The notes: generated by a model from the letters alone, not told the origin. A stretch of DNA of 64,000 nt from an uncultured virus (IMG/VR IMGVR_UViG_3300020182_000026) (IMGVR_UViG_3300020182_000026:1-64000), one strand, 5' to 3'; shown: positions 26,501-52,831, numbered from the stretch's first letter. Made by a program: numbers and translations.

Positions 26501-26545
26501 ATTGCGTAAGTGTGCTGGGAGAAAGTTATATATTTTATTCGCCAT
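17558..26545 (-). CDS. giant (2995 aa) virion structural protein, probable baseplate wedge component
   Basis: directly follows gp6-like gene; N-terminal NFLP motif; C-terminal KPYHTK motif; beta-rich internal modules. Confidence 0.65.
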   Translation of the reverse strand: MANKIYNFLPAHLRNSELESIFDATLERAFSKGSMQKEKAFLGRKEKGIYSDKDVYMSFPEHLFQRDNYGLEPVFSNTQINDNIYYDDLLNAMFNKGMLTNDHRRLFKSTSFTVSLPIDADKFANWSLYYWVRPGFFVNGLQGSDNKHYVTVENSTGNWWGENNAWYHYDDIREFITSDNKQYIEQATRPIIEFDARLTIANASVTEWEVPKFVSDDGDNTYSIFEYVVNDNFPLDIELGFAPKVKAGDYHSEYVFRIDLPQGIKFELDSSFVDLYTECDFNYRNLRHEVGTGEVDRVELTQPALSANDIDVYVDGIKQIGNYTYSNSAVEFDSTVEGYVYIDYATADNVVVDGDFVWQRIDPAIEYNTDNEYHNLKEMTYSTVYEHMIRLIETTDGLTGEANGVNNYRQIGDNTDKTRFNNLGSVLVRNSIDIKKAYFAVTRDDYDPVKSVEFLASAYSNYKNKLVTVVRDILEDTSSDTKTTTEILEQAIAEISLAKRSSISVFDGTGMVNFGNNLSHYTLGEIDIAVGSRFQPIPDNMIADVIDTEKLSVYLNGVLQKNITDYELQGSEVVFTEYTAQATDIIQIRYFEKLADTFIPPSSTKLDINALYVPRRVTDIEYTPTTEMIVGHDGSVTPAWGDRTDDILLEFETLIYNRLAPSVSDNTINHFDYGIYRDATVEYSIAEKKYIQYPFFKKWMIRNNIDNLYNDTFDPDNWKTWNYRSINEQSPGHWRGIMQYVYGTDNPVVEPWVAVGLSQKPDNFDALYGSDYTQISFWENLKSARQKDWPVPVDSYGQIATMNDLFFSGAITAAEISTMDQDWEFGDGSPVEMAWRRSSEYAFAEFLLMILTKPFEVLDNYATQVDNIISYYHAREGFSTSSITAQREQYEFKLGSKLGGFVNNFKLLSENSGLSNSHYTDIPSDNYDLFVHAGEPNRSESFSAIVIEKVSTDVAYPTYDMNSTATYNAGDVVLNPYDHKYYKRKTTGESAKETANSIKFDYAMWTLISQPKTREFGYRIHGYDDYNPMFFTLDWDKTSKRKVWSTDGDQANINVWTSGEYYRQDSYTVYNNKPYVSLLNHTASSLFDNDIKNWKLLPEWPRVNKVEANGYRETLLDQIKTYNYGDILSTRDEVAHLMVGYQAYLKAIGWDFTDVDEDNRVVDFERLLEKFLDWSAEVHQPGDFITLTPILLSGSFEAPYGVATVGRETNKNYYRVVDENGRQLPDTDIKFNSDGSKITWESTTPVYGIKLDVADIEQAFVVDRVDSYGDVIYDPFSHNRNLRMIVDCNRTTDWDGTLAADGYIVYENELVPNLETMVGETRYYRDTIVDQSLKNINNLKSNQIGYSPRTYLTNHGVERESQLEFYKGFLAGKSTVSSINRIINFNSNFEDLKHRDIWAIKIADYGKLDNNLSVSSTVNTIDIVSDPHVVHFNMDNKMPTVEFGKRVAIKTAGYVDPSDVNYVVQDSDTLETSTLPYYEGDLAWVRFDEERDWDVKRLSEVAEINFISETSDGQLKVALTNEVSTSETVYLKIINGNVDPEIQGNYYLVSDGTRISNGVNVYEYLVFDQTYEPLVVEIDTTTDNSVYIPTSGTIGVEAISYVSNPTILSGDTLVIDGEIFTYVPGTGGTSTGISIGGSTATADPIVSEGEQVRIVVYGDDGLIANTNTLVTFSGTNATATQTVTSLAGDKIDINGETITIDYSATQSIRAESTATVTTDLTTGETLVIDSNGNNDNVTIRDIEVVGSIEYPTITETKSIRINGVTVTFTVPGPVTGSDSEEIQTGVATDVSSITLTTDMTNFLPGDITVDNGVDTPYVLTTSAYTYANDVITFNTPIADGQVDDDGDPLTPDVDQDGLVDITVELVAQPVAQFLSTQDIIDEINSTGAPVTASIDVSNFVMLISSTAQLTMTGNALLDIGFGSSSIIESKLANLADDLNSLTYLDSYISGDILIIETDEDELTLSGSAFNDLGFPSNTFETNSNPTASSVAQQINSLNIPNISASVSVGRLKISSNSANIIIEENVSTPGSMLRIGFSQTSVEVNSIDSIITDLNSALSDLLGTSAQEFDRRVLIASDESSIVLSDITGNAWNDLGIAVGTYSNTNTLSSSAAEFQEQINDASDNVTVNISSDGRMIFTSENNTMTFSGTTQAMLDKIGLSNEYTSVTSNADFKVMRWKSVRFTPRYNGDDFDEFYAELGLNYTSLIWADEYLNSGWAVLNRNEYGTLHILNRRAKPVNTDYVNRIVAKSGDEFYDYQLFDPINFKIAGSIAKDIDYVDWNDPAKYDVTLNSDLWLSQSLGKIWWDTNLTRYYRYDDYGDANGNIDIDYAKRFWGKIVPGSEVVVKQWVTSEKLPDGVSQFNTETYFDSIKNKTVTKYYYWIATGDEARYAKEFSVEEISMMIASPTTVNKFFPVDGDTVIVSNNANILTSDTITYSIEYNVDDNRETHHTDWELVSRKSSAPLEDIFLQDFKNSIANSEISHYEQFEVSATDITSTGVAFSYDWIGDNSLTHNDIVVTVNNVIVSNNDFVINVDEVTILSAVDILEDDVVRVYHVSEYDSWFANITDARDNFASTVLSTLSKRMIATDFPMYNDYIALNHGVFATTNWYHAEEYETIDTFEYLSRTRNIDMIALHNSGVSSFKVELPDGDEYYFPVNGEIRLVHKTNSVLDLDFSITELTVPETVRLTANQLSVQLHELMNMIYKYAEVSEIKTIFFDMIEYMYTERTHPEWIFKTSYIDLTMFNKPLRQYAIYQRDTYQDTIDYVMETKPYHTKIRTTERIYPTDETADLTVDALHHMHITKYFGEHSRFELNGIDGGDEEVTDTSLFEPLVDGEYLGGKFLRNDIGYTYSADGFDTGEFSASARDASIVTVDTFTDETRTTLDRKEFYVYDKFGRGYHIPVTDSGTISSFDGETLVVNQASKFKAAKSKTIRLVAVEDANGNVEFMVYDSKSTNNLRISERGVYNGVATSVDNGNTIYVLGAPDQIYSHEDT

Positions 26546-26547
26546 TC

Positions 26548-29500
26548 TTATTCACCTGTTAATTCATTGTCTGCAATTGATGAAATTATTTTTACATCTT
26601 TTGATGTTACTACGCTCAAGAAAATCTCATGCGGTTCACAATTAATACTTAGCAAGTTCTTAAAATCATTTCCTGAATATTTTGGAGTAATCACAACACT
26701 TGAAATATAATCTGAAAGTTCTTGGTGTAGATATGCTGCTAGTTCAGAGAAGTAGAATTGATCCCCAAAATCCCAGTTATCTAAATTAAAATATTCATTA
26801 ACTTTTTTAGCAACTACACTTTTAATTTCACTGTTAGTGTATGCTGTGCCACGTTTAGCAATAACTTTAAATACTGCTTGATTTTCTGCATCTGCATAAT
26901 CACCAAATAACATTTTAAACTTTACCGGGATATAACTTACGTGATCGCCGATAGCTGCCTTGTCTTCAATAGATTCCATAATCTTGCGAAGTTCAAAATT
27001 GTTAGGAGATGCTGGGATAACATCACTGAACCCATTAGCAATCCACTCGTTGATGTTTCTAACGTAGTCTGACGTAAGAACATACATATCAATGATGTTG
27101 CTTGTACTCGGGTCAATTCTCTTATCTACATCGGCATAATGATCCCATCGGAAACTCATAAACGTATCTTCAACGTAACTACGTCCCATAACAACACGAT
27201 AATGAACGTTGTTATAATCAATTTCAGTGCCATCTTCATTTACCAAACCATACTCAAAACTAGGTGTCCAGATTCCTGAAATCTTACGTTTCCAAACATT
27301 TGTCTCTGGGTTATACCAAATAATAGCAGTAGACGGTAGTGCTTCTGTATCCGTTGCTGCAATTGCACGACTTGATACTTTTTCGTAAGTAACGTCATCA
27401 TAAGTGTAATCTTCAAGTATGATATATGATACAACTTCACCATTGAATACATTAAGAATTCCGTGAGGATCCTTCTCTGAATCCATATGCAACACTTTAA
27501 CTTTTGAATAATCTGTATAACCTGCATCGGTAATAAATTTACCATACACGTAACTTTGTACATCTTTATATGATTGTACTTTTACATTAGTTCTATATGT
27601 AACATCTACTACTGCTTCAACTTTAACTGAGAACGTTGATAAATCTGCGATACCTACGCCTGCAATACTTACGTCAAGTAATGATCCTTCACCAGGATCA
27701 TATGTCCAGAATGTAATCGTATATGTTGATGCATCTACTTCCATATCCCAATGTTCATTAGAAATGAATGTGCCGTTTGGCATCTGAACTAAGATACCTT
27801 CTTCTGATAAAACTGTTGTAGAATTAAAAACGATTTTACCATATGCTAACTGCTTCCATTTAACATCGTTATCATTTAAGTCAATTCCCCAACCATCGTT
27901 TCTTGGAAATTCAAACTCATACATGTTGCCGTTCACTGTAGTGAAATACTCGGTCTGTACTCCACGCATTGGGTCTTCTGCCGTATCAATTGTTTCACCT
28001 TCTGGAAGTTCGTTTTGGTCTACCCAAATAAAGTTCGCACTATCACTTGCGTCTGAGAAATATGATGCACTCGGTGTTCCCTTGAATCCTGTATCAAGTA
28101 AATCTGCTGAACTCAACGTCACTGTAGAAGATGTAGATGCAACGTTTGCGGCGTCTACTGTTTCGACATTAACTGCTAGAGCAGGATAAATGAACTCATT
28201 ACTGTCTTCAACATCTACGTCACTTTCTACTATACTAGATTCACCAATAAACCCAGAAGTATCTGCGATATCAAATGAGATTATATATTGAGGTTCTTCT
28301 CCGATAATTGGAACATCGCCGTTTACGTCTAGTTCAGGAGTAATTGGATATTCTATACCTAGCGGAGATACCAAGTAATGTTGTGTACTTCTGTGTACAA
28401 TTTGACCTGGGTGACCATTGATAAATTCTAATGTTTCCTTTGCACCAGTATATTGATATACCGCATCAAACGTTGCTCCATTGCCGTCTGGTATGTAATT
28501 AGAAATTGGAGTGTAACCAATTGCAACTGAATCTGATTGTAAGTTGTCTATTGCAACTGAATCAGCTTGTACATCGTAGTAGTTAATTAAAAGCTGGTCG
28601 CGCTCTGCTAAATTAGTTTCATTGTCAACAACCATTTCATTATTGCCATAATAAAATTTAACTTGATCATTACTTTCAAATACAATTTTCTTACCAGTGA
28701 AACTTACTGAATATTCTGCTTCATTATCTCTGATGCCAGGGTTATATGATAGTTCTAAGAATACATCTGTTCCAGGAACAAGTTCAGTAGTCTCATCATG
28801 AATTTCCCATCCCCACTTCACTCCATCAAATACATATTTGATAATAAATGATGACACTGAAAGGTCTTCAATCTTTTGAGATTTAATATCTGTGATTTCA
28901 GTGTCTTCAAAACGTGTTCTATAACCTCTAACAATAGCTTCTATCTGTCCTGATAATTCTGGAATAATATCTGTAACTTCAAAGTTATTGAGGTTAGATA
29001 CTGGTGAACTCGAACTATAATTCATTCTTGTCCAATACTCTGTTTCGCTATCACCAACAAGTTTAACAAAGTCACCAGAGCGTATACCATTAATCATAGT
29101 AATACGAGGAACAATAACTTTAGGGTCTGTTGGGTCGATATCAAACATCTCTGGTGCTAGAGTTAAATCAATAACCGCGTCAGTGTTTGTTTTGTTTGCG
29201 GAATAGAAAAGATTTACTAAACTTGGGTGTCTAATTGCTTTTGCAATTTCGTTTCTGATAAAATCAGTAGCGTTACCATTCTGTCTGTTGAAACGTAAGT
29301 TCATGGTAACAGCATCATCGTCCATATACACAGAACCATCTGTGCCAGTAATACTGATATTAGAATGATGTCCTGTAACATCGTCCATTTCAAAGTAACG
29401 TGAATTACCTGCGTATGTTGTGTTTACTGCTTTTACTTTTGATACGATATTTGAACCAAGTGATAGCGGAAGAACGTTATAATCTTGTGCGTTCACCATT

Positions 29501-30786
29501 CTATCTTGTGCATAGTATGAGCGCGGCGCAATGCGTCTTACACTTGTGTATGATTCTGCTGCAAAGTTTTCAGAGAAGTCACGGGTAGACGAAAGAGTAA
29601 GAACTAAGCGATAGTTCTTTTTGTCTGCGCCAGTGTATGGAATAGAAATTGTTTTTTCTTTAACGTCATTTCTGTCTACTCTATAGTTTTCATTATCTGT
29701 TACACGATACCAAACACGATAGTTACCACTTGCAGCATTACCAAATACACCATCGCCATAATGCAATTCAATTGCATTGTTATTGATTGTGTTAACGCTT
29801 ACGATATCACCGTTACCGTTACGAAGTGAATTATAGACTGCTGTTTCTCTTGTATCGTTGTCTACTTTTGTTACACTAGATGAATATGTGTTAGTATTAT
29901 CTACACGTTGTACCCAAACATCGGTGTTTGAAATATTATTAGTCGCAACTGTTTCGATAAGATTTGAGATTTTTGTACTGTATGAAAAGTTTTCAAACTG
30001 TAGTGTACCAGTCTTTGCATAAACAAAGAAGCCTGTTCTATCACTTGCTGGGCCTAGATTGTCATTTCTGTTTACGATTGTAAACTTCTTTGTTTCAATT
30101 GGCTCTGCTTCAAGAATTTTATCATCTGTGAATGCAGTACGCACTGCTTCAAATCTTCTATTCTTACCAGAGACTGGAGCTTCAAAAGAAAATGATACTG
30201 CACGTGACGCATCTGTTTCATTAAGTTCATAAAGATAATTCTCAACACCAGCAACTACCATACTTGCCATTGGGTCTTGAATTTTTGAAGATGATGCAAG
30301 CGCGGCATTGATAACGTCAATAAAGTTTTCATACCAGTCAGTATTGTTAGAGTCATTCCAATTGATTGTGCGATTGGCTAGAGAGTTACCTTCGTTATCT
30401 GCAATTGGTTGATCTGTTGTAATACTTGTAATTTTTAAGAAGCCACGTGCGTTTGTCGGACGCGTCTTATTATATCCCAACGTCTTAGCCATACGTAGAA
30501 CACTTTCACGGCGTTCTGCTGTATCTAAGAAGTTTTCGCGTGTGTTCATATCAAGTCTAAATGACAATGAATGTCCTAGATATGCAACCAAATCTAAAAT
30601 TGCAATAAATTCTGAACTTGCGATAAAGTCATTAAACTTATCTGGGTATGTTGTCGCAACATAATCAACTAGTGCGGCTCTGATAGTATCAAAGTCGTAT
30701 GCTTTTAAACTTACATTTGTAAACGCTGTATAAACTGCTGTCCAGCTTTCACTTGCAAATAAATTGTCAACTCTTTCTTGACTCAT
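26548..30786 (-). CDS. gp6: baseplate wedge subunit (T4 gp6-like), extended
   Basis: YDFDTIR...DFIASSE...LAKTLGY-type N-terminus, YGDGVFG, QDRMVNAQDY. Confidence 0.8.
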   Translation of the reverse strand: MSQERVDNLFASESWTAVYTAFTNVSLKAYDFDTIRAALVDYVATTYPDKFNDFIASSEFIAILDLVAYLGHSLSFRLDMNTRENFLDTAERRESVLRMAKTLGYNKTRPTNARGFLKITSITTDQPIADNEGNSLANRTINWNDSNNTDWYENFIDVINAALASSSKIQDPMASMVVAGVENYLYELNETDASRAVSFSFEAPVSGKNRRFEAVRTAFTDDKILEAEPIETKKFTIVNRNDNLGPASDRTGFFVYAKTGTLQFENFSYSTKISNLIETVATNNISNTDVWVQRVDNTNTYSSSVTKVDNDTRETAVYNSLRNGNGDIVSVNTINNNAIELHYGDGVFGNAASGNYRVWYRVTDNENYRVDRNDVKEKTISIPYTGADKKNYRLVLTLSSTRDFSENFAAESYTSVRRIAPRSYYAQDRMVNAQDYNVLPLSLGSNIVSKVKAVNTTYAGNSRYFEMDDVTGHHSNISITGTDGSVYMDDDAVTMNLRFNRQNGNATDFIRNEIAKAIRHPSLVNLFYSANKTNTDAVIDLTLAPEMFDIDPTDPKVIVPRITMINGIRSGDFVKLVGDSETEYWTRMNYSSSSPVSNLNNFEVTDIIPELSGQIEAIVRGYRTRFEDTEITDIKSQKIEDLSVSSFIIKYVFDGVKWGWEIHDETTELVPGTDVFLELSYNPGIRDNEAEYSVSFTGKKIVFESNDQVKFYYGNNEMVVDNETNLAERDQLLINYYDVQADSVAIDNLQSDSVAIGYTPISNYIPDGNGATFDAVYQYTGAKETLEFINGHPGQIVHRSTQHYLVSPLGIEYPITPELDVNGDVPIIGEEPQYIISFDIADTSGFIGESSIVESDVDVEDSNEFIYPALAVNVETVDAANVASTSSTVTLSSADLLDTGFKGTPSASYFSDASDSANFIWVDQNELPEGETIDTAEDPMRGVQTEYFTTVNGNMYEFEFPRNDGWGIDLNDNDVKWKQLAYGKIVFNSTTVLSEEGILVQMPNGTFISNEHWDMEVDASTYTITFWTYDPGEGSLLDVSIAGVGIADLSTFSVKVEAVVDVTYRTNVKVQSYKDVQSYVYGKFITDAGYTDYSKVKVLHMDSEKDPHGILNVFNGEVVSYIILEDYTYDDVTYEKVSSRAIAATDTEALPSTAIIWYNPETNVWKRKISGIWTPSFEYGLVNEDGTEIDYNNVHYRVVMGRSYVEDTFMSFRWDHYADVDKRIDPSTSNIIDMYVLTSDYVRNINEWIANGFSDVIPASPNNFELRKIMESIEDKAAIGDHVSYIPVKFKMLFGDYADAENQAVFKVIAKRGTAYTNSEIKSVVAKKVNEYFNLDNWDFGDQFYFSELAAYLHQELSDYISSVVITPKYSGNDFKNLLSINCEPHEIFLSVVTSKDVKIISSIADNELTGE

Positions 30787-35417: not shown

Positions 35418-38400
35418 TTAATATTCCTCATTACGCTTTTCTTCTAGTTGTTTCTGTACTTCTGCTAATTTTTCTTCATCTTCTTTACGTGCCGCAGATG
35501 TCCAATACCAACTATCTAGGTCACCTTGAATTTCAGCTTCTTGTTCTTCCAATTCAACAATTTGTCTATCACGTCTTTGTTCTTTGAACTGTACATTCTG
35601 TTCACCACGTTCTCCAGTGGTCGCTGCTTCGACCATACCATTGACACCGCGTTCTAACTCTTTGACTTCTCGGTATTCTTGTTCTGTCATTTTACTTAGT
35701 GGTGTAGCTTGTAGCTTTTGTTTAAGTTCACTCTGTATACGTTGTGCTTTTTCATATTCAATAGGAGTCAGTGTATCTTTTGGTATTTCTGAATTCACGC
35801 TTCTAAACCCAGTACTAGTGCTATCAGACGTAACACGCAATCTTGAACCTCTAGACGTATACGGATTGTTGTCTCCTGATATATCAATCATATCAGCCGA
35901 GACAGTACCATCTGATGGGTTCTCTACAATTCCATTCGTACCAACATAAAACGATGCCGCATCATCATCTACTTTTTGGGTGTACGCATCTACCTCAGCT
36001 TGTGTTATACCATCAATATCATCTGCATTAAATGTTTCATGTCCATTGGCTTTCATACTTTCCTGTATGATAGAAATACCTTCTGGTGTTACTTCTATGC
36101 CACTTTCATTTATGTCGTTAACTATTTGCGCATTATCGTATGGAGGTTCGCCTGCAATATTCTGAACAATCATTTTATCTATAGTATTATTAACAGATTG
36201 CAATTCAATACACGAAGACTCATTTCCCTGCGCACAATAATATTCAACTTGACTTTTTGTTTTATTAAATTGTTCTGCTTGTTCTGCTGTTGGTATACCG
36301 TCATTTTCAAGTAAATTATTAGTAAGAGAACGTAGTGAAGAATTTGCATTTGGTGCACCATCAGGGTCTAATAACAAACCTACATTACCGTCGGGATCTA
36401 TCACTGCGGTCGAACCTGCACCTATAGGTAACTCGTTAGGGTTGGGTAGTTCTGCTCTTGGAACAACGACTGGCGCAGTAACTGGCGATGGCGTTTGCTC
36501 TCTGCCTCTAGGATCAGCAGCATCCGGATCGTATACTATTTGTCCCATGACAGTTTCTTCATCTAAATCAACAGATGATGTACTAAAGAATGGGTTGACT
36601 GGTAGGAAACTATCTGGAACAGGTATTCTAATCATATCAAGCTGCTGAACAAACTGTCCATTACTAAACGAACTTGTTACATTTCTAACTGCATATAACA
36701 TTGTTACTAGATTTGCTATCTTTGTGTTGTCATTTTCATCTACGCCTGCCGCTTTGTTACTTACAATAGTAACATAGTTCGCTCCATTAATAGATGTTGG
36801 ATGACTACGATATGTATCGATAGCATTACTGTTACCAAATAATTCTTTTGCAGTCTTAGGTGTCAAGTATGTATCAATCCAATACGGGTCACCTTTGATA
36901 GTTAACTTTAGCTGTTCCATACTGATGTCCATATTTACAGCCTCGTAAAACTTTTCTTTTGCTAGGTCAACTTCTTTCTCATTAGACGAAGTATAAATTC
37001 TTATATTATTCTTTTCTGTCAGATAAGGCAAAACGCCACGTTTGAATATCACTGGGTTAACCAATAATGCTTCTACAATATCTTCTAACTGTTGAGTAGT
37101 TAAAGTTGATATTAAATCATCATCTAATTCTTCCATAATAATTTGATTACTATTACTTAACTGTCCGGCGATACCAGAGAAGTTTTCAGATATATCACTC
37201 ACTTGTGAATTCGTGTATGCTGAAAAATTAGCACCAAGTGCTTGCATCGTAACTTCGTCAACTTGTCTTTCAATATTACGCAGTGAAGTATCTACTCTGT
37301 TAACTCCAGTTTCCGCAGAGTTATAGCGTTCCAATAACTTATTATATTTTTCACGTTCTTCGCTTGTTGTATTCAGAACGTCAGGGTCATACTGTTGCGC
37401 CGCTTGTAATTGTGCTTGCAACGGTTTATCACGTAATGCGGCAGCAGTTTGTCTAGCAATTTCTGGAGGGACTCCTTGTGCAAGTAATGCATCTCTCTGA
37501 CCAATAACTATTGCGTTAGTTAATTCTTCGCTAGAATTTTCTACTTGTGAACGAATAGAATCTAAATTCTCATTTGCTGATGTTCGGTCGCCCTCTAGTA
37601 CAGACAATTGCGATTGTAGTTCTTCTAATTTTGCTCTTGCACGAGGATTTAAATCTTGTATAATTTGTTCGTTACCTTCAATGAAGCGTTGTGCAAATGC
37701 GTCATCTTTTGGTAAGTTATATGCTTTAATCAGTTGTCGATTTAAACTAATATTCAAATCTAAGATTTGGTCATTAAGTCCAGTATACTGGTAATAATAT
37801 ATCTTCTTACATTGTTGTCTATCAAAAATCTCTTTTACCATTTTAGCAGCGTTTGTTATCTTGTTTGCATTATCATAATTGTTCTGTACTACAATTTGAT
37901 TCTTAGTTGTAATGAAATATTTTACATTATGTCCAGCTTCCCCACTTAGTGGATTCAATCCGTTTGGTTTAGGAGAAGCATCTGGTAAAATTGAAACTGT
38001 TTTAGTAAACGTATCTTTTTCAGTAGTAAGTTCAGTTCTGATATCAATAGATTGAATGCATATGTCGTATAACACATCTATAACACTTAATCCGGGAGTT
38101 ATAACTCCAGTTTGTTGTGATATATTAACAGAACCAGTTCTAGTAGCAACTTGATTTCTTGCTGCGCCGCCGACATTAGGGTCGTCTCCATTCATTTTAG
38201 ACTCGCCAAATTCAGTCATAAAGTCATTATCAAATTCAAATTCGTATGTGTGAATATACTGATTCTCGGCGGCATTGTCTGTACTGAAATCATTCTTTTG
38301 TATATTTTCATTTAACTTTGAAAAGAATTCTTCTATCGTTTCTTTTAGTGTTTCTTTAATATCAAACTCAAAATTATGTTGAATAAGGTTAACACTACGA

Positions 38401-39539
38401 CTAACTGCATAGTCTGGCGTAATAGTACCGTCGATTGTAGTAATAGTTCCTCTAGCATCTGTACTAGATGGAACATCGCCTACATTTGAAATAACGAATG
38501 GGAAAACTTTAGTTAGATTTTGATTTTCACTTCTGATAGTGACACCATCATCACTGTAACCTTTAAAGTTTACCTTTAAGAAATACTTTGCCTCTGCGAT
38601 ACTTGCGTAACCTGAAAGTAGTGCGGCATTCATAAGATTATCATTTAAACTTGTGTTACCAACTTGAACAATAGAGAATGATAATTTTGTTGCAGTACCA
38701 GCTAGTCTAGACACACTACTCGAACCTGCACCCAAAGATTGTATTTCTAAATCTTGAATATTAAATTCTGTTGTTACACCTGTTTCTGCAATAGTAATAT
38801 ACTGAATATCACTACCTGGCCAACTGTTTGAAATAATAGAATCCAAATCTTGCGCTTCATTCATTAAAAACTCAACTGCATCCTGTTGCTTAACAACAAA
38901 CAATTCTAAGTGATAGGTATAGTTTTGATATTCATCAAGTGCGTTTTCCCACCACTCTCCTGCATTTTCCATTTGAGTTACAATATCACTTAGACTTCCT
39001 GCTACGTTAAAATTTGTCCCTGGTTCTGCATTTGGCAAAGGAGCATCACTTCCACCAGTACCAGACGTTGATCCTGGGCCACTGTATTGTGGTGGGGGAG
39101 CAGTAGGGGTCGCTGGAGCTTCACCGCCAGTGAATATCGCATATTCTGCGTTTCGTCTGTCTACTAGACCTGGAACAGTCTGTCCACTAGCTTTGTTATA
39201 TAATAACATAGCTTGAGCGACTTCTTCTTTTGATCTAGTGCCATTTGCTGTTACTTGGGCAAGACTACCGATGTTATATGCAAAACTAGTCATTGCTTGA
39301 CGTTCAGCTGGTGTCCAATTATAAGTACTGTCGTACTTGTCAACACTCGCTTCATATTTACCAAGTTGTTGCTGTAACTTAGTTCTTGCTTCACTACGTG
39401 ATACTGTGATATTAGGTGGGTTATTTCTATCTCTACTGCCAGCATATGACCCATAACCAATAGACCATTGTCCGTGGTCCCAGTATGGGGTAGCACTGTA
39501 TCCTTCATATTGTGCAATTAAATCAACAGTGTTTGTCAT
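35418..39539 (-). CDS. large tail/baseplate hub protein with N-terminal GH24 lysozyme domain
   Basis: IAQYEGY..TPYWD..WSIGYG, SFAYNIG, GLVDRRNAE; later YQYTGLNDQILD and LTIKGDPYW hub-like motifs. Confidence 0.75.
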   Translation of the reverse strand: MTNTVDLIAQYEGYSATPYWDHGQWSIGYGSYAGSRDRNNPPNITVSRSEARTKLQQQLGKYEASVDKYDSTYNWTPAERQAMTSFAYNIGSLAQVTANGTRSKEEVAQAMLLYNKASGQTVPGLVDRRNAEYAIFTGGEAPATPTAPPPQYSGPGSTSGTGGSDAPLPNAEPGTNFNVAGSLSDIVTQMENAGEWWENALDEYQNYTYHLELFVVKQQDAVEFLMNEAQDLDSIISNSWPGSDIQYITIAETGVTTEFNIQDLEIQSLGAGSSSVSRLAGTATKLSFSIVQVGNTSLNDNLMNAALLSGYASIAEAKYFLKVNFKGYSDDGVTIRSENQNLTKVFPFVISNVGDVPSSTDARGTITTIDGTITPDYAVSRSVNLIQHNFEFDIKETLKETIEEFFSKLNENIQKNDFSTDNAAENQYIHTYEFEFDNDFMTEFGESKMNGDDPNVGGAARNQVATRTGSVNISQQTGVITPGLSVIDVLYDICIQSIDIRTELTTEKDTFTKTVSILPDASPKPNGLNPLSGEAGHNVKYFITTKNQIVVQNNYDNANKITNAAKMVKEIFDRQQCKKIYYYQYTGLNDQILDLNISLNRQLIKAYNLPKDDAFAQRFIEGNEQIIQDLNPRARAKLEELQSQLSVLEGDRTSANENLDSIRSQVENSSEELTNAIVIGQRDALLAQGVPPEIARQTAAALRDKPLQAQLQAAQQYDPDVLNTTSEEREKYNKLLERYNSAETGVNRVDTSLRNIERQVDEVTMQALGANFSAYTNSQVSDISENFSGIAGQLSNSNQIIMEELDDDLISTLTTQQLEDIVEALLVNPVIFKRGVLPYLTEKNNIRIYTSSNEKEVDLAKEKFYEAVNMDISMEQLKLTIKGDPYWIDTYLTPKTAKELFGNSNAIDTYRSHPTSINGANYVTIVSNKAAGVDENDNTKIANLVTMLYAVRNVTSSFSNGQFVQQLDMIRIPVPDSFLPVNPFFSTSSVDLDEETVMGQIVYDPDAADPRGREQTPSPVTAPVVVPRAELPNPNELPIGAGSTAVIDPDGNVGLLLDPDGAPNANSSLRSLTNNLLENDGIPTAEQAEQFNKTKSQVEYYCAQGNESSCIELQSVNNTIDKMIVQNIAGEPPYDNAQIVNDINESGIEVTPEGISIIQESMKANGHETFNADDIDGITQAEVDAYTQKVDDDAASFYVGTNGIVENPSDGTVSADMIDISGDNNPYTSRGSRLRVTSDSTSTGFRSVNSEIPKDTLTPIEYEKAQRIQSELKQKLQATPLSKMTEQEYREVKELERGVNGMVEAATTGERGEQNVQFKEQRRDRQIVELEEQEAEIQGDLDSWYWTSAARKEDEEKLAEVQKQLEEKRNEEY

Positions 39540-45042: not shown

Positions 45043-45154
45043 AATAAAGAAGTGAAGTGTCTCCTCTCAACCTCTCTCAACTATCGGATCTTCTTTATTG
45101 TTTCAACACAGAGCATGAAACAACCCGGTGCATCTCTGATGCATCGGGTTTTTT
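45043..45154 (+). ncRNA. candidate small RNA, three hairpins, CU-rich loop
   Basis: bounded by promoter and terminator; stems AATAAAGAAG/CTTCTTTATT and TGTTTCA/TGAAACA. Confidence 0.6.
45122..45154 (+). terminator. intrinsic terminator
   Basis: ACCCGGTGCATC-tct-GATGCATCGGGT followed by T run. Confidence 0.8.
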
Positions 45155-45173
45155 AATAGAAGGGATAAAGATT

Positions 45174-45362
45174 ATGAGTGTAACTGGAAATCTACCAAGA
45201 AAGACCGACGAAGAAACTGATGAAATGAAAAAAGAAATTGAAAAGTTTCTTAAAAAAGGCGGCAAGATTAAAAAGATCGAAGAAGGTGAATTCACCGAAG
45301 CAAAGGATATGAAATACAAATTTCGTAAGCCAGCTTTTCCGAAAAAGAAAAAAGAAGACTAG
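45174..45362 (+). CDS. small Lys-rich hypothetical protein
   Basis: MSVTGNLPRK...IEKFLKKGGKIKKI; start after terminator with AAGGGA RBS-like. Confidence 0.65.
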   Translation: MSVTGNLPRKTDEETDEMKKEIEKFLKKGGKIKKIEEGEFTEAKDMKYKFRKPAFPKKKKED

Positions 45363-45374
45363 CTAAATACTCGT

Positions 45375-45614
45375 ATGGTAAGTACGAGTAAATTTCTAGA
45401 ATGGGCACAAATGGTTACCGGTTGTACGGCGGCTTTGATAGTGTCATTAAACATTGGGGACACATGGGTCTTTTGGGCTATGTGTCTTTTTTTCGTTAAA
45501 GATAGTATGATGGGGATGTTTGCGTATATAAACAAATACCCAGGTATTATTATGAGTAGCGTAATATACGTACCGATTGATGTTATTGGTATTTACAGAT
45601 GGTGGTTATTTTGA
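45375..45614 (+). CDS. small membrane protein
   Basis: 79 aa, about three hydrophobic segments, ends GIYRWWLF. Confidence 0.65.
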   Translation: MVSTSKFLEWAQMVTGCTAALIVSLNIGDTWVFWAMCLFFVKDSMMGMFAYINKYPGIIMSSVIYVPIDVIGIYRWWLF

Positions 45615-45874
45615 ACTGGATTCAAATAGATAAGCAGATTATAAGCATGATGCGTGTAATCGATGACAAAGATAAACTTTATGAAGACGTAAAGCAAGTA
45701 TTCAAGTGGAATGAATCACAAGTTGAAGCCGCTGTAGGTCCATTAATCAAACGATGGAACTGGTATGATATGCACACAGATCAAAAGCCAGCGAAAAAGA
45801 AACGTGTTACCAAAGCTAAAACCACAAAAAAAGCCCCTGCTAAAAAAGCAAGAGCCACTAAGAAGAAATCATAA
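45599..45874 (+). CDS. hypothetical protein with Lys/Ala-rich basic tail
   Basis: C-terminal KPAKKKRVTKAKTTKKAPAKKARATKKKS; start uncertain. Confidence 0.6.
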   Translation: MVVILNWIQIDKQIISMMRVIDDKDKLYEDVKQVFKWNESQVEAAVGPLIKRWNWYDMHTDQKPAKKKRVTKAKTTKKAPAKKARATKKKS

Positions 45875-46306
45875 CTTCTTTCTATAATTTTCCAAATATT
45901 CAGTAAGAACTTTCGAACTGCCTATTCGAACATTGATGATACCGTTATAGTATTCATCAGTTTCTAATACACGGCGTTCAAATTGTTCCCGTGCCTCCAT
46001 ATAACTTAAAGCACCACGACTCGGACAATAGTGAAGTATCTCTCTGGAAAACTTGTCTTCTCCTAGTTCTGCTACATCTGCATTAAGATGGTCAGAAGAA
46101 CCCCAATATGTACGCCAATCGCTTTCTTTAAATCCACGCCGTTTGTTCTTACGCCCCTTTAGAGGTGGCTTTGTGGTTTTAAACTTCGCTAATTTCTTAC
46201 CTACATATTTCCTGTTATTTGTAAGATTTGTAATCAGATACACAAATCCCTCAACATCATCCGGTAATTCATTAACTATTTCGTTATTATATGTCCATTC
46301 ACTCAT
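45869..46306 (-). CDS. GIY-YIG endonuclease (T4 endonuclease II/DenA-like size)
   Basis: GFVYLITN...KYVGKK, YMEAREQF, YYNGIIN; likely start MSEWTY at 46306. Confidence 0.8.
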   Translation of the reverse strand: MSEWTYNNEIVNELPDDVEGFVYLITNLTNNRKYVGKKLAKFKTTKPPLKGRKNKRRGFKESDWRTYWGSSDHLNADVAELGEDKFSREILHYCPSRGALSYMEAREQFERRVLETDEYYNGIINVRIGSSKVLTEYLENYRKKL

Positions 46307-46443
46307 TATGTATTGTTTGTATCCTTTAAGGTCTAAAGACCTAATACTTTCATAAATCTCATTTCGCTTTCGCTCAACCGATTTAATCAGTATTTCTATT
46401 AATAGATTATAATATAATATCATTATGGTTATATTATTAATCT

Positions 46444-46451
46444 TATTTATA
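46444..46451 (-). promoter_or_regulatory. T4 late promoter consensus TATAAATA
   Basis: exact octamer upstream of GIY-YIG gene, in AT-rich context. Confidence 0.5.
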
Positions 46452-46870
46452 TATGCCTGCGGCTGAGCCACAATTGCCCTGTTGCCAGGACAATTGCAAA
46501 AAATTATGGATACATGCCATAGCTTCATCGCCTCTGTTTATGAGCTAGTAGCCAGAAACTACGGGGTCGGTTGGCGATTCCCCCTTCACTCAGTACTGCG
46601 TCTTTCGACCCAACGGCACCTCACAATGTCTAAACAGACAGAACATTATGTAAGTCGATAGTGCTATAGTAGCCTATCATCGGTTATATTATTAAACTGG
46701 TCAACCACGCACCTTTAGAGCCGTGGCTGTTGTAATTAGAATACTTGTATGTGTGGTTAACGAGAAGATTGCAGGAATTCATCCCTACTAGTCCAACGGC
46801 AACAGTATCTTTAAATACTGGCAGATTCAATCCCGAGTTGGCAACCCAACTAACAGTTCCACTATGTCTG
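46450..46870 (-). ncRNA. candidate large structured non-coding RNA (~420 nt), family unassigned
   Basis: no credible ORF, raised GC, many stems with G-U pairs on minus strand, GAAA and GCAA tetraloops, long-range pairing. Confidence 0.65.
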
Positions 46871-46873
46871 ATA

Positions 46874-46973
46874 TATTAGCATTTGTCATTGTGTATTAGC
46901 CTTGTGTGCTATGTGTTAGTTTTATATTAGCTTTGTAATAGTTTTCAATAGAGCCTGAGTTATTTATATTAGC
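46874..46973. repeat. four TATTAGC direct repeats plus one variant
   Basis: copies at 46874, 46894, 46925, 46967; TGTTAGT at 46914. Confidence 0.6.
46961..46968 (-). promoter_or_regulatory. T4 late promoter consensus TATAAATA
   Basis: exact octamer pointing into the structured non-coding region. Confidence 0.55.
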
Positions 46974-46974
46974 A

Positions 46975-47208
46975 TTAGAGTATTGGCACACCGGCCTGTT
47001 TACTCATTTCATAGTTGTCTTTTATAATATCATTAATGTGAGCAATGTGCCCAACTGGCATATCATGGAGTTCAGAAATACTTACCCCACCTCTCATATA
47101 CCAAGTTAACTTTAACATATTTTTGTGTATGCTGTCAAGCTCTTTTTTGTATTTTTCTGTTTTTTCTTGGATCTGCGCTGGCGTTGCTGTAATTAACCAG
47201 CTGTGAAA
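46975..47208 (-). CDS. -1 frame extension / small ORF downstream of hub gene (gp51-like or tail-chaperone GT-like; not in ORF track)
   Basis: 77 open codons FHSWLITATPAQ...LTWYMRGGVSISELHDMP...QAGVPIL; first ATG only at 47118 with no RBS. Confidence 0.65.
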   Translation of the reverse strand, partial: FHSWLITATPAQIQEKTEKYKKELDSIHKNMLKLTWYMRGGVSISELHDMPVGHIAHINDIIKDNYEMSKQAGVPIL

Positions 47209-48044
47209 AAATTTACAGGGTTGACCTCCAGAGCAACCTCGCCTTTATGTTCACATTCTGGACAAACAAACTCAAATGTTGTTGCATCCTTGGGCTTTTT
47301 AGATAGTTCCTTGACTTTAGTATCAATTTCGTCTACAACCGTTGTTGGAATGTTACTGAGGAACTCCATAATCGAATCATAATCGTTTACATTTCCTTCT
47401 GGAGTTTCAATGTAACTTATTGTATTTGCTAACAAATCTACATTATGTTCAGCGATCTTCCTAAAACTGCCATAGAATCGTCTTGCTAGTTCTGCCTCAT
47501 CAGTTTCCTCATCGTCTTCATTCGCTACGCTATTCTGAATGTGTTGAACGATTCGTTTTTGTTCAACATCAATTAGTGCTAGGCGCGTAATCGCTTCTAC
47601 GCTTGGTGGACGAATATGAATTTTAACTTCATCAAATTCAACTGGCGTAACATGTTCAATATCTGGGAACTTGTTCAAGATATAATTTATATCAATATTG
47701 AAGTCACTAACTTCTTCACAATTTGTACATTTGTGTGCATGTGTTAGTTCACGTCCATACGTTGCATATTGAATAGCAAGATACAATGCTTCCATATCAA
47801 TATTGCACATTGTTCTGGGATTTGGAATATCCGGACAACAACTTTTTGCTATATTGATTAGTGCTTCACCATTAAGAAGCTCATCTGGGTTTTTCATAGT
47901 AATTTCATCTACTGCGGTCATTGGCAATACACCAACTTCTTCTAATAGTGTGGTGCCCCATTCTGGATTAAATTTGCCACCTGTCGGCAGTTTTATATAA
48001 ATCCCTGGTTTTCTGAAATACTTTGCTAGTGGGTTTGTGTTCAT
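47193..48044 (-). CDS. baseplate hub assembly protein / tail chaperone (T4 gp26-like)
   Basis: NPLAKYFRKP.IYIKLP, PMTAVDEI, two CxxC pairs, ends NFF; likely start ATG 48044. Confidence 0.7.
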   Translation of the reverse strand: MNTNPLAKYFRKPGIYIKLPTGGKFNPEWGTTLLEEVGVLPMTAVDEITMKNPDELLNGEALINIAKSCCPDIPNPRTMCNIDMEALYLAIQYATYGRELTHAHKCTNCEEVSDFNIDINYILNKFPDIEHVTPVEFDEVKIHIRPPSVEAITRLALIDVEQKRIVQHIQNSVANEDDEETDEAELARRFYGSFRKIAEHNVDLLANTISYIETPEGNVNDYDSIMEFLSNIPTTVVDEIDTKVKELSKKPKDATTFEFVCPECEHKGEVALEVNPVNFFTAG

Positions 48045-48057
48045 TTTTTCGCCTCTT

Positions 48058-48119
48058 GATAAATACAACGATACATTCTATTTATGTTCATAGTTATTTA
48101 CTCTATTATAAACTACGAA
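48058..48119. promoter_or_regulatory. face-to-face late-like promoters plus TATAAACTACGAA motif
   Basis: GATAAATA + 48058-48065, CATAAATA - 48079-48086, motif 48107-48119. Confidence 0.5.
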
Positions 48120-50715: not shown

Positions 50716-52407
50716 ATGGCAACTTGGAAAAAATACTTTAAAACATACGATGGTCTCCCACAACGAGACTCGTCATCGTCTAATCAAGGATCGGAAGCAT
50801 CCAATAAGCGTTATAGCAGTTGGTTACCTGAAGTTTATCAGGGACAACCAAACCGTGTGCAACGTTATGGGCAGTACGACCAAATGGACTTAGATAGTGA
50901 AGTGAATGCGGCATTGGATATTATTGCTGAATTTTCAACACTACAAGATGAAAACTCTAGGTTGCCATTTAAGTTTGACTTCCCAGAAGATCCAACTGAA
51001 TCTGAGAATGATGTTCTACAGCGTACACTACGACAGTGGTGTTCAGTTAACGAAATGAACAAACGTGTTTTCCGTATCTTCCGAAATGCCATTAAGTACG
51101 GTGACCAAATCTTTGTTCGTGATCCAGAAACATATAAACTATTTTGGGTCGATCCTGCTAAAGTAGATAAAGTAGTTGTCAACGAAGGCAAAGGCAAGAA
51201 AGTAGAAGCATATTATATCAAAGATATTGATATCAATATGGAAAGTATGAATATCACTGCCGATGCAAACAAACTTACACAAACAGGTGCAGGTGCATCA
51301 GGTATGCCTAACTTGAATAGTAATACTACTCAAGGTTATACTGGTGGTTCGGCAGGCGGCTCACGTTTCGCAAACGACCAATCATCTACGCCAGTAGATG
51401 CGGCACACGTTATTCACATTTCATTGAATGAAGGTATCGATGGCTTCTGGCCTTTTGGTACTTCTATTCTTGAACCAATCTTTAAAGTATATAAACAAAA
51501 AGAACTACTAGAAGACGCTATTCTAATATATCGTGTACAACGTGCGCCAGAACGTAGAGTGTTCTATATTGATGTTGGTAACATGCCAACACACAAAGCA
51601 CGTGCGCACCTAGAGCGTATTAAGAATGAAATTCATCAAAGACGTATTCCAAGTAAGACTGGTGGCGGACAAACTGTTACTGATAGTGCTTACAATCCAC
51701 TATCAATTATGGAAGATTACTTCTTTGCACAAACAGCAGAAGGTCGTGGTTCTAAAGTTGAAACACTACCAGGCGGTGAGAACTTAGGACAAATCGATGA
51801 TTTGAAATACTTCAATGACAAGTTATTACGTGGTTTGCGTGTTCCAGCTTCATACTTAGGTGGTATGGATGACGGCGGAGCAACAGTTAATGATGGTCGT
51901 GTAGGTACAGCAATGATTGCTGAATTTAGATTTACAAAGTTTTGTGAGCGTTTACAAGCACTTATTGTTGAACAACTAGACAACGAGTTTAAGATGTTCT
52001 GTAAAAATCGCGGCGTACAAGTAGAAAGTTCGCGTTTCTCATTACAATTTAATACTCCTCAGAACTTCGGCAAGTTCCGTCAAGCAGAAGTAGACCAAGT
52101 TGCTATGAATGTATTCTCAAGTATCGAAGGTGCGGACTATATTAGTAAACGTTTTGCACTACAGCGTTTCTTAGGACTAACAGAAGATGAGATCCTAGAA
52201 AATGAAAAGCTATGGCGCCAAGAAAACGGCGACACCGATGAACTTGCAGGAGCAAGTGACAATCTTAAAGGTGTCGGGGCAGCTCCTTCTCCTGATGACT
52301 TAGGTGGGGGCGATGATTTTGACTTCGATGAAACTGATCAAGATGATACAGATGACGGTTCACCGATATCTGGTGCAGAAAACGCAGAAACAGACGAAGA
52401 AGTATAA
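50716..52407 (+). CDS. gp20: portal vertex protein (T4 gp20-like)
   Basis: EDAILIYRVQRAPERRVFYIDVGNMP, MEDYFF, VETLPGGENLG, LRVPASYL. Confidence 0.95.
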   Translation: MATWKKYFKTYDGLPQRDSSSSNQGSEASNKRYSSWLPEVYQGQPNRVQRYGQYDQMDLDSEVNAALDIIAEFSTLQDENSRLPFKFDFPEDPTESENDVLQRTLRQWCSVNEMNKRVFRIFRNAIKYGDQIFVRDPETYKLFWVDPAKVDKVVVNEGKGKKVEAYYIKDIDINMESMNITADANKLTQTGAGASGMPNLNSNTTQGYTGGSAGGSRFANDQSSTPVDAAHVIHISLNEGIDGFWPFGTSILEPIFKVYKQKELLEDAILIYRVQRAPERRVFYIDVGNMPTHKARAHLERIKNEIHQRRIPSKTGGGQTVTDSAYNPLSIMEDYFFAQTAEGRGSKVETLPGGENLGQIDDLKYFNDKLLRGLRVPASYLGGMDDGGATVNDGRVGTAMIAEFRFTKFCERLQALIVEQLDNEFKMFCKNRGVQVESSRFSLQFNTPQNFGKFRQAEVDQVAMNVFSSIEGADYISKRFALQRFLGLTEDEILENEKLWRQENGDTDELAGASDNLKGVGAAPSPDDLGGGDDFDFDETDQDDTDDGSPISGAENAETDEEV

Positions 52408-52410
52408 ATA
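52403..52410 (+). promoter_or_regulatory. T4 late promoter TATAAATA
   Basis: exact octamer overlapping portal stop. Confidence 0.65.
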
Positions 52411-52415
52411 CTACT

Positions 52416-52637
52416 ATGAGATATTCAGACCTAACAGAAAACTATTCTCCTGACGAGGATAATCATAATAGTAGAGAGATAGATGATACACGTAAGGATC
52501 GTCTAACTCTTATCCACCTAGCAAAGTTGCGTAAAATACGTGAGTATCGTAAGTACCAAGAAGGTATTAAATCACAGCAGGTACAACGCCAATACAAAGG
52601 CTCAGGTGACGATGGCGGCGGGGATATGGAGCTTTAA
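52416..52637 (+). CDS. small head-module protein
   Basis: 73 aa; DDTRKDRLTL..L.KLRK; between portal and core genes. Confidence 0.7.
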   Translation: MRYSDLTENYSPDEDNHNSREIDDTRKDRLTLIHLAKLRKIREYRKYQEGIKSQQVQRQYKGSGDDGGGDMEL

Positions 52638-52697
52638 TTCATATTAAGTAGTAAGTTTTACTATATACGTCACATACTAAATATCTCTACGACAATG

Positions 52698-52724
52698 AAA
52701 CGGCTCAAAAGTAGCCGTTTTTTT
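52698..52724 (+). terminator. intrinsic terminator
   Basis: AAACGGCT-caaaagt-AGCCGTTT plus T run. Confidence 0.75.
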
Positions 52725-52753
52725 GCATTTCCCTATTATACACTATCTTTGCC

Positions 52754-52761
52754 TATAAATA
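52754..52761 (+). promoter_or_regulatory. T4 late promoter TATAAATA for head operon
   Basis: exact octamer about 70 nt upstream of the acidic core gene. Confidence 0.75.
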
Positions 52762-52831
52762 CTTTTGAAACAAAGAGTGTTTCTACAACCGCCACAGAAA
52801 GCAGTGGCTTTTTAGATAAGGAGACATTAAT

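Follow-up and report, generated by a model that had tools for sequence, protein, structure and literature searches.

The stretch of DNA analysed here, called the window, comprises 64,000 nt of the 72.9-kb uncultured virus record IMGVR_UViG_3300020182_000026 of IMG/VR, which is rated 20% complete. Related contigs extend up to 342 kb, and the gp46-like recombination nuclease of the window is closest to that of the jumbo phage PA5oct, with 51% identity. On the minus strand, the baseplate hub gene gp26 is followed by a short conserved open reading frame (ORF) ending at 46975, a non-coding stretch and the gene of a SegE-like GIY-YIG nuclease. The non-coding stretch (46307-46974, 668 nt) holds no conserved ORF. 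It is the largest gap in the window, as a first-pass annotation had stated, when ORFs of at least 80 aa are considered, and its GC enrichment is mild (0.41-0.435 versus 0.31-0.38 alongside). The element, on the minus strand at 46468-46867, is a core of about 400 nt belonging to a non-coding RNA that is conserved and highly structured; the RNA represents a new family within the known kind of large ornate phage RNAs of unknown function.

It is the comparison of relatives that takes the structure beyond chance. Homologues of gp26 in viral contigs yielded 10 loci, and two motif scans of viral contigs then found 41 and 102 stretches. A metagenome scan gave at least 119 contigs with the RNA, the metagenome and viral collections sharing some of their contigs. 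Alignment A2 contains 59 distinct full-length copies, and pairs were counted on 55 distinct relatives over a structure of 15 helices and 77 pairs, making 4235 cells. Standard pairs occupy 97.7% of these cells, compared with 29-46% after the 3' partners have been slid by one to three columns. Changes on both sides occurred in 29 of the 77 pairs (411 cells), and none of 500 shuffles scored as high. A separate alignment of the 3' core only (A3, 44 sequences), from which the covariance model R1 was built, is paired at 99.4% versus 17-46% when slid; 11 of its 25 pairs have changes on both sides, and again no shuffle of 500 is as high. The shuffle control overstates the significance because the relatives form one lineage, and the slid control is the fairer one. 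All-against-all covariation of columns was dominated by the relatedness of a few clades, and the named helices were counted instead. The z value for folding of the single sequence was -1.78 on the minus strand, with an equally good fold in 4 of 100 shuffles, and +0.12 on the plus strand. The former is suggestive and not significant alone, and the decision that the RNA is real was based on the comparative data.

The non-coding stretch keeps 80% DNA identity where the gp26 protein keeps 64%, and 69% where gp26 keeps 57%. No coding signal was found in A2, as 579 of the 691 indels have lengths not divisible by three, the variable columns are spread evenly over the codon positions (96, 92 and 91 of 140) and no frame is open throughout. 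The sense strand is the minus strand, as first annotated, because G-U is the majority state of many pairs; columns 357-363, for instance, are UG in 55 of 55 relatives and columns 92-99 are GU in 52 of 55.

The fold contains about 13 helices and two pseudoknots (PK1 and PK2). A four-way junction makes up its 5' domain and the two pseudoknots lock its 3' domain, with a variable part in between; the joining strands and loops hardly vary. Its parts are as follows.

46468-46867, minus strand: RNA core, from the A2 pair counts, without coding signal
46863-46866 with 46469-46472, minus strand: possible closing helix CAUA/UGUG, pairable in every A2 copy
46753-46862, minus strand: 5' domain, four-way junction (helices 3-5 paired 88-100%, 10 pairs changed on both sides)
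46859-46862 with 46753-46756, minus strand: closing helix GUGG/CCAC of the 5' domain, enclosing H1, H2 and H3
46833-46856, minus strand: H1, in the 5' domain
46795-46826, minus strand: H2, in the 5' domain
46771-46788, minus strand: H3, in the 5' domain
46702-46729, minus strand: H4, with conserved tip CUCUAAAGG (helices 6-7 paired 95-98%, 3 pairs changed on both sides)
46657-46678, minus strand: H5, GAUAG...CUAUC (helix 8 paired 99.1%, 3 pairs changed on both sides)
46619-46654, minus strand: H6 hairpin, whose stem folds in each PK1 sequence variant
46533-46654, minus strand: 3' double-pseudoknot domain
46632-46638 with 46533-46539, minus strand: PK1, H6 loop UCUGUUU with AAACAGA, strands about 95 nt apart
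46541-46614, minus strand: 3' core, comprising the PK2 strand, H7 and a three-way junction
46610-46614 with 46570-46574, minus strand: PK2, GUUGR (GUUGG in the window) with loop YCAAC (CCAAC in the window)
46600-46609, minus strand: H7, a GNRA hairpin
46588-46592 with 46541-46545, minus strand: H10 of the three-way junction, UGAGU/GCUCA
46563-46584, minus strand: H8 of the three-way junction, whose loop is the PK2 partner
46548-46562, minus strand: H9 of the three-way junction
46471-46496, minus strand: long terminal hairpin that ends the core

The 5' boundary of the core is conserved at ACAUAGUGG. The closing helix GUGG/CCAC of the 5' domain is invariant in the 59 copies of A2 and becomes GCAG/CUGC in the divergent L261 group. 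The joining strands GGGAUUGA and CUUCUCGUWAA of the 5' domain, together with GUGCCGUUG and AAUCGYCAACCGAC, are invariant or nearly so in A2. The 5' domain is followed by a variable linker, H4, an optional hairpin, H5 and H6, and the tip CUCUAAAGG of H4 is not retained in L261. Six of the seven local stems listed in the first-pass annotation are conserved helices, paired at 93-100% in the 55 relatives, namely AGTTGG/CCAACT, GTAGGGA/TTCCTGC, CAGCCACG/CGTGGTTG, GTC-GAAA-GAC, GGGG/CCCC and CAATTGTCCTG-GCAA-CAGGGCAATTG. The seventh, CAGTAT/ATACTG, turned out to be the variable tip of a helix, of which only the base was counted (88% paired).

PK1 has at least seven contiguous complementary bases in 56 of the 59 copies, and the three misses are the L061 group, in which the columns are misaligned. 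It occurs in at least four variants, UCUGUUU/AAACAGA, UCUAUGU/ACAUAGA, UAAUGUAU/AUACAUUA and UAAUGUGU/ACACAUUA; a cross-class control was uninformative, as the variant classes share part of their sequence. For the R:Y pair of PK2 (columns 305-341), GC was counted 34 times, AU 21 times and an unpaired state never (n = 55). The repeats of TGCCGTTGG and GCCAAC had been taken to allow pseudoknots, and one of these, PK2, is real. RNAalifold predicts that GUUG at columns 301-304 would instead extend H7 by pairing with 317-320. This alternative retains some probability, but a covarying pair is present for PK2 only. The proposed long-range helices of CAGACA..GAAC with GTTCTGTCTG, of GTGCCGT with ATGGCAT and of CTGAGT with a 3' GCTCAG did not hold, being paired at 59.4% versus 36-46% when slid. 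The true long-range partners are UGAGU with GCUCA in H10 and the H6 loop UCUGUUU with AAACAGA in PK1.

The earlier description of an unassigned large phage RNA agrees with the strong covariation and with the database searches. Rfam 15 (4227 families) gave no match at gathering score in the whole window, and cmscan of 45400-47400 with permissive filters left the element without a match at E<=10. In 12 diverse relatives, the Rfam search also found nothing in the element, with only unrelated weak matches elsewhere in the loci. ARAGORN predicted no tRNA or tmRNA gene in the whole window, in line with the lack of an Rfam tmRNA match. No RNaseP_* model matched at E<=10 in the window region or the 12 relatives, and the GOLLD, ROOL, OLE, raiA, HEARO and IMES RNAs had no Rfam match inside the element of the window or these relatives. 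For cultured phages, blastn ('distant' mode) against 50,697 phage records found no similar DNA.

In the viral and metagenome collections scanned, the RNA was found only in contigs of marine T4-like jumbo phages. Model R1 finds one copy in a 342-kb genome that is 92% complete and no match in PA5oct, Phosso or the more distant viral record L010; its best value on Atu_ph07 (E 0.147) was taken as noise. A motif scan of prokaryote genomes, one for each of 185,579 species, gave no match. Our search of the literature found no description of the RNA. In the portion available, the IMG/VR candidates of Fremin et al. 2023 (PMC10690425) are 29-151 nt only, and a motif search of the text supplements of that paper gave nothing, its alignment files, which may contain fragments, lying outside the search. 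The accessible part of PMC12619734 ('moraphages') does not mention non-coding RNA.

All or part of the stretch is present in six RNA-library runs, which come from four studies. Contigs of four of these runs were placed on it: that of X4 spans it entirely and that of X17 covers 46468-47106. Run X19 holds 46680-47121, further pieces and a contig from a related phage, and X20 holds pieces over 46498-46759 and 46932-47086. Runs X17, X19 and X20 have no contig over 46310-46431 or beyond 47164, which is not to be counted as evidence. The contig of X17 stops at 46468, one base beyond the closing helix as proposed, beside eight letters that seem to resemble a sequencing adapter; this end is only a hint of the 3' end of the RNA. 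Identical piece ends in X19 and X20 (46498-46618 and 46589-46702) would be breaks of the assembly graph and not RNA ends.

The core is flanked by a repeat-bearing 5' region and by an AT-rich spacer, beyond which lie a second structured element, the 5' untranslated region (UTR) of the next gene, and that gene itself. The order downstream of the RNA is promoter, 5' UTR, nuclease gene, terminator-like hairpin and convergent gene.

46975-48068, minus strand: gp26 with its probable -1 frameshift extension ('orf47', ending at 46975), the usual upstream neighbour of the RNA
47193-48068, minus strand: baseplate hub gene gp26 (Pfam T4_baseplate, PHROG baseplate hub)
46868-46972, minus strand: 5' flank with CUAAUA(Y)A repeats at 46872-46879, 46892-46899, 46923-46930 and 46965-46972
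46395-46467, minus strand: AT-rich spacer of variable length, with promoter-like TATAAATA at 46444-46451 and TATAAT at 46406-46411
46329-46394, minus strand: two-hairpin 5' UTR of the cargo gene, 66 nt (alignment A4, 39 sequences)
46343-46394, minus strand: long imperfect stem-loop of the 5' UTR
46329-46342, minus strand: nearly invariant hairpin AGGUCUUUAGACCU of the 5' UTR
45869-46306, minus strand: SegE-like GIY-YIG nuclease gene, 145 aa (Pfam SegE_GIY-YIG)
45832-45856: terminator-like hairpin after the GIY-YIG gene, from a terminator scan

The sites TATAAATA were correctly described as flanking the element, at 46961-46968 and 46444-46451, and the first of them overlaps the first CUAAUA(Y)A repeat (46965-46972). 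CTAATAYA has 19 matches in the window versus 8.3 expected, of which four are clustered in the 5' flank. In relatives, a sigma-70-type promoter-like site, TTGACA-17-TAGTAT or TATACT, is found upstream of the CUAAUA repeats. Since they lie downstream of this site, the repeats probably form a transcribed 5' extension of the RNA. CTAATAYA as a general promoter was rejected, as most of the other 15 matches in the window lie inside ORFs. Pairing of the repeats with UAUUAG of the 5' UTR was also rejected, as UAUUAG pairs locally with AAUAC and covaries.

On the other side of the core, TATAAT lies about 11 nt before the 5' UTR element, and the L012/L013 group has TTGACA-17-TATACT at the equivalent position of the spacer. 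The structure of the 5' UTR was predicted on A4, the same alignment as its pair counts, where it is paired at 96.7% versus 32-49% when slid, with 13 of 22 pairs changed on both sides and 0 of 500 shuffles as high. It accompanies the RNA with any cargo, be it GIY-YIG, PD-(D/E)XK or radical-SAM-like, and appears to be a fixed leader of the cargo slot. A small peptide encoded in the 5' UTR was rejected, as neither frame nor start codon is conserved by eye.

The gene behind this leader varies. Fifty unique viral-contig loci extend far enough downstream to show the gene that follows the RNA, which encodes a GIY-YIG protein in 31, a PD-(D/E)XK protein (PDDEXK_15) in 18 and a radical-SAM-like protein in one. 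Among the matches listed, 57 unique metagenome loci comprise 38 with GIY-YIG, 16 with PD-(D/E)XK and three with other genes. In two of these three, L275 and L277, a terminator-like hairpin and TTGACA-17-TAGTAT precede five CUAAUA repeats and the core, after which come small unrelated ORFs; gp26, a nuclease and the standard UTR hairpin are lacking. The second UTR hairpin of L277 is apparently replaced, by eye, by GGAAAC-UUUA-GUUUCC with the same loop. The radical-SAM-like cargo is a 402-aa ORF with a CxxxCxxC motif (L098 from 2271; L329) behind the same 5' UTR.

The GIY-YIG protein of the window matches Pfam PF19835 over residues 4-124 (E 2.4e-36, 125.1 bits, cut-off 25), and the catalytic domain is the only one detectable in its 145 aa. 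At least 596 relatives of this protein were found in viral contigs. Beside the best 80 of them, R1 finds the RNA at 47 and no RNA core at 33; three of these 33 loci are too short, and in the other 30 the gene directly follows a homologue of gp46 or gp26. In the 30 RNA-less loci, from which the 5' UTR is also absent, the GIY-YIG protein is 77-85% identical, while gp46 is 45-60% and gp26 30-37% identical. The RNA is present in 28 of 31 PD-(D/E)XK loci, with one too short and two without it. GIY-YIG also alternates with PD-(D/E)XK between closely related RNAs, for example in L004/L005 versus L068/L020. Because the distributions of RNA and nucleases are independent, the nuclease genes are mobile, swappable cargo and the RNA is independent of them. 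The GIY-YIG gene has the patchy, horizontally mobile spread expected of a free-standing homing endonuclease. In L210-L239, it directly follows gp46 or gp26 in more distant T4-like phages, which gives the gp46-gp26 interval the appearance of an insertion hotspot of this mobile gene in different lineages.

A comparable arrangement is known in phage T4, where segB is a free-standing GIY-YIG gene in a cluster of tRNA and stable-RNA genes. Both loci place such a gene beside conserved stable-RNA genes in a T4-type phage, and the conserved RNA locus probably offers constant DNA for the insertion of mobile genes. Unlike segB, the locus described here has a single 400-nt RNA of a new family, with two unrelated nuclease families and a radical-SAM-like gene behind one 5' UTR.

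Several observations concern the surroundings of the RNA. A slippery heptamer, A_AAU_UUU (47208-47214, minus strand), lies in gp26 six nucleotides ahead of a hairpin, GCUGG-N15-CCAGC (47177-47201). The gp26 stop codon falls within this hairpin, and the -1 frame stays open from this point as far as 46975. By eye, slippery site and hairpin are retained with compensating changes in L004, L007, L013, L061 and L068. gp26 appears to have a programmed -1 frameshift, by which 'orf47' would extend the hub protein at its C-terminus. Elsewhere in the window, the second-largest gap between ORFs of at least 80 aa (52408-52831, 425 nt) has TATAAATA at both ends (52403-52410 and 52754-52761) and no Rfam match at gathering score. 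A 101-aa ORF at 45057-45362 (plus strand) matches the SutA RNA-polymerase-binding domain below threshold (27.7 bits, cut-off 29.3), and the structural region at 17558-30786 and 35418-39539 (minus strand) contains very long ORFs of 2995, 1412 and 1373 aa.

We consider it highly probable that the element is an independent structured RNA gene of a new family. The fuller reading that we favour, which we hold to be reasonably probable, is a non-coding RNA that is stable, stands alone and acts in trans, carried by a lineage of marine T4-like jumbo myoviruses. A promoter of its own (of sigma-70 type in relatives, the T4-late-like TATAAATA in the window), a 5' extension with two to five CUAAUA repeats and a 3' end just past the terminal hairpin are supported, not proven, by the sequence features. 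During infection, the RNA would act in trans as a stable RNA. Its compact core and the repeated single-stranded CUAAUA motif might bind one or more host or phage proteins, as a scaffold or decoy, a mechanism that we advance tentatively and regard as somewhat doubtful. The promoter before the cargo gene and the conserved two-hairpin 5' UTR form, in this reading, a landing pad, behind which a mobile SegE-like GIY-YIG gene, a PD-(D/E)XK gene or, rarely, a radical-SAM-like gene sits as cargo.

Some observations weigh against this picture. All relatives belong to one phage lineage with conserved gene order. The RNA-library cover consists of assembled contigs, which may come from DNA in such libraries and which indicate presence, not ends, strand or abundance. 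The closing helix CAUA/UGUG changes on one side only in A2 and its register misfits L261, a group that also lacks the CUAAUA repeats. In the window, TATAAATA is not enriched (seven found, 7.4 expected), and the window's own subgroup has no sigma-70-type promoter between gp26 and the RNA.

The last promoter observation leads to a cis-acting role. Because no sigma-70-type promoter lies between gp26 and the RNA in the window's subgroup, the RNA could be the 3' part of the gp26 late mRNA, as a stabilising 3' UTR, or else a long regulatory 5' region of the cargo gene. gp26 with its extension lies directly upstream in 62 of 64 unique metagenome loci among the matches listed, and the RNA-library contigs X17 and X19 join the end of the upstream ORF to the RNA. 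However, L275 and L277 keep the RNA and a promoter-like site without gp26 and cargo gene, in many relatives a canonical promoter-like site separates gp26 from the RNA and a further one lies in the interval from the RNA to the 5' UTR, and a 400-nt double-pseudoknot fold would exceed the need of a stabiliser; we consider a cis-acting UTR quite unlikely. A ribozyme, either self-processing or a degenerate group-I-like core beside a homing-endonuclease gene, is suggested by the large pseudoknotted fold, the near-invariant joining strands, the neighbouring GIY-YIG or PD-(D/E)XK genes and the conserved 5' boundary ACAUAGUGG, which could be a processing site. In phage T4, the td intron, a group I intron, carries the gene of the GIY-YIG homing endonuclease I-TevI with its own promoter and structured leader, and phage group I introns thus share with this locus a pseudoknotted RNA of catalytic size together with a GIY-YIG gene. 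Here, in contrast, there are no flanking exons and the nuclease gene lies outside the RNA and not in a loop. An intron was rejected, as the upstream ORF has a conserved stop at 46975 and no gene is interrupted; the nuclease gene is followed by the terminator-like hairpin and the convergent gene. The Rfam models of group I (Intron_gpI, RF00028; 45400-47400 in the window and the element in the 12 relatives), group II, RNase P, GIR1 and small self-cleaving RNAs gave nothing at E<=10 in 13 family members, and the pseudoknot layout (hairpin loop with 3' strand; strand with junction loop) differs from the P3-P7 layout of group I introns. A ribozyme is accordingly judged unlikely.

GOLLD and ROOL, which measure roughly 580-800 nt and are often carried by phages or prophages, resemble this RNA as large, intricate, pseudoknotted phage non-coding RNAs of unknown function with no obligatory protein gene beside them. 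Phage-borne, large and ornate, and with no evident protein partner in the locus, the RNA might self-assemble into an RNA-only particle, a homo-oligomeric cage. GOLLD, ROOL and OLE are reported to form homo-oligomers (PMC12286853). Yet the RNA has no Rfam match, is smaller at about 400 nt, has no tRNA genes nearby, was found in marine jumbo T4-like phages only and shows by eye no conserved self-complementary loop in A2, which makes a cage improbable. The first-pass annotation had suggested, among other roles, that the RNA could be a guide or ribonucleoprotein partner of the adjacent nuclease. Such an RNA would be like the omega RNAs of IscB (HEARO) and TnpB, which are also structured RNAs of a few hundred nucleotides just upstream of a nuclease gene. 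A small nuclease gene lies about 160-230 nt downstream in 49 of the 50 unique viral-contig loci and encodes only a catalytic domain, with no separate DNA-binding domain (Pfam domains cover residues 4-124 of 145 and 4-164 of 176). However, the two nucleases have unrelated folds, with GIY-YIG or PD-(D/E)XK and not RuvC or HNH catalytic domains. A promoter and a separate 5' UTR stand between RNA and nuclease gene, there is no HEARO match, and no guide-like hypervariable segment next to a scaffold was seen by eye in A2, where the variable parts are hairpin tips and AT-rich flanks. Independent distribution, set beforehand as refuting this idea, is what was found: 30 GIY-YIG and two PD-(D/E)XK loci lack the RNA, and three RNA loci lack a nuclease. 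The guide reading is therefore close to refuted. A DNA-level element with no RNA function, such as a replication origin or homing target, could explain the CTAATA repeats, the AT-rich flanks and the hotspot of nuclease genes alongside, but the G-U pairs that are kept would be A-C on the other strand, the GNRA loops and the two pseudoknots covary, and RNA-library contigs cover the element; such a reading is hardly credible.

A stand-alone, trans-acting RNA of a new family thus remains our preferred reading. With considerably less confidence, we can imagine a new class of large RNA for the take-over of the host by jumbo phages, a ribozyme or an RNA-only or RNA-scaffolded assembly, in which the CUAAUA arms and the core would capture a host factor, for example a protein of defence or RNA decay, and the block of RNA and 5' UTR would be the landing pad; we regard this as rather unlikely. 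If true, it would be a new kind of RNA-based counter-defence, and mobile nucleases of unrelated fold would replace one another at a fixed pad. To our knowledge, complex conserved RNAs of more than about 300 nt are few in bacteria and phages, and nearly all of those understood are ribozymes or key ribonucleoproteins. The RNA described here is widespread in marine metagenomes, being present in no fewer than 102 viral and no fewer than 119 metagenome contigs. Its covariation, the lack of a curated family and its presence in RNA libraries of four studies make it a well-defined target for work on structure and function in uncultured jumbo phages. The locus is also a natural case of cargo exchange, which bears on how free-standing homing endonucleases choose and share their insertion sites.

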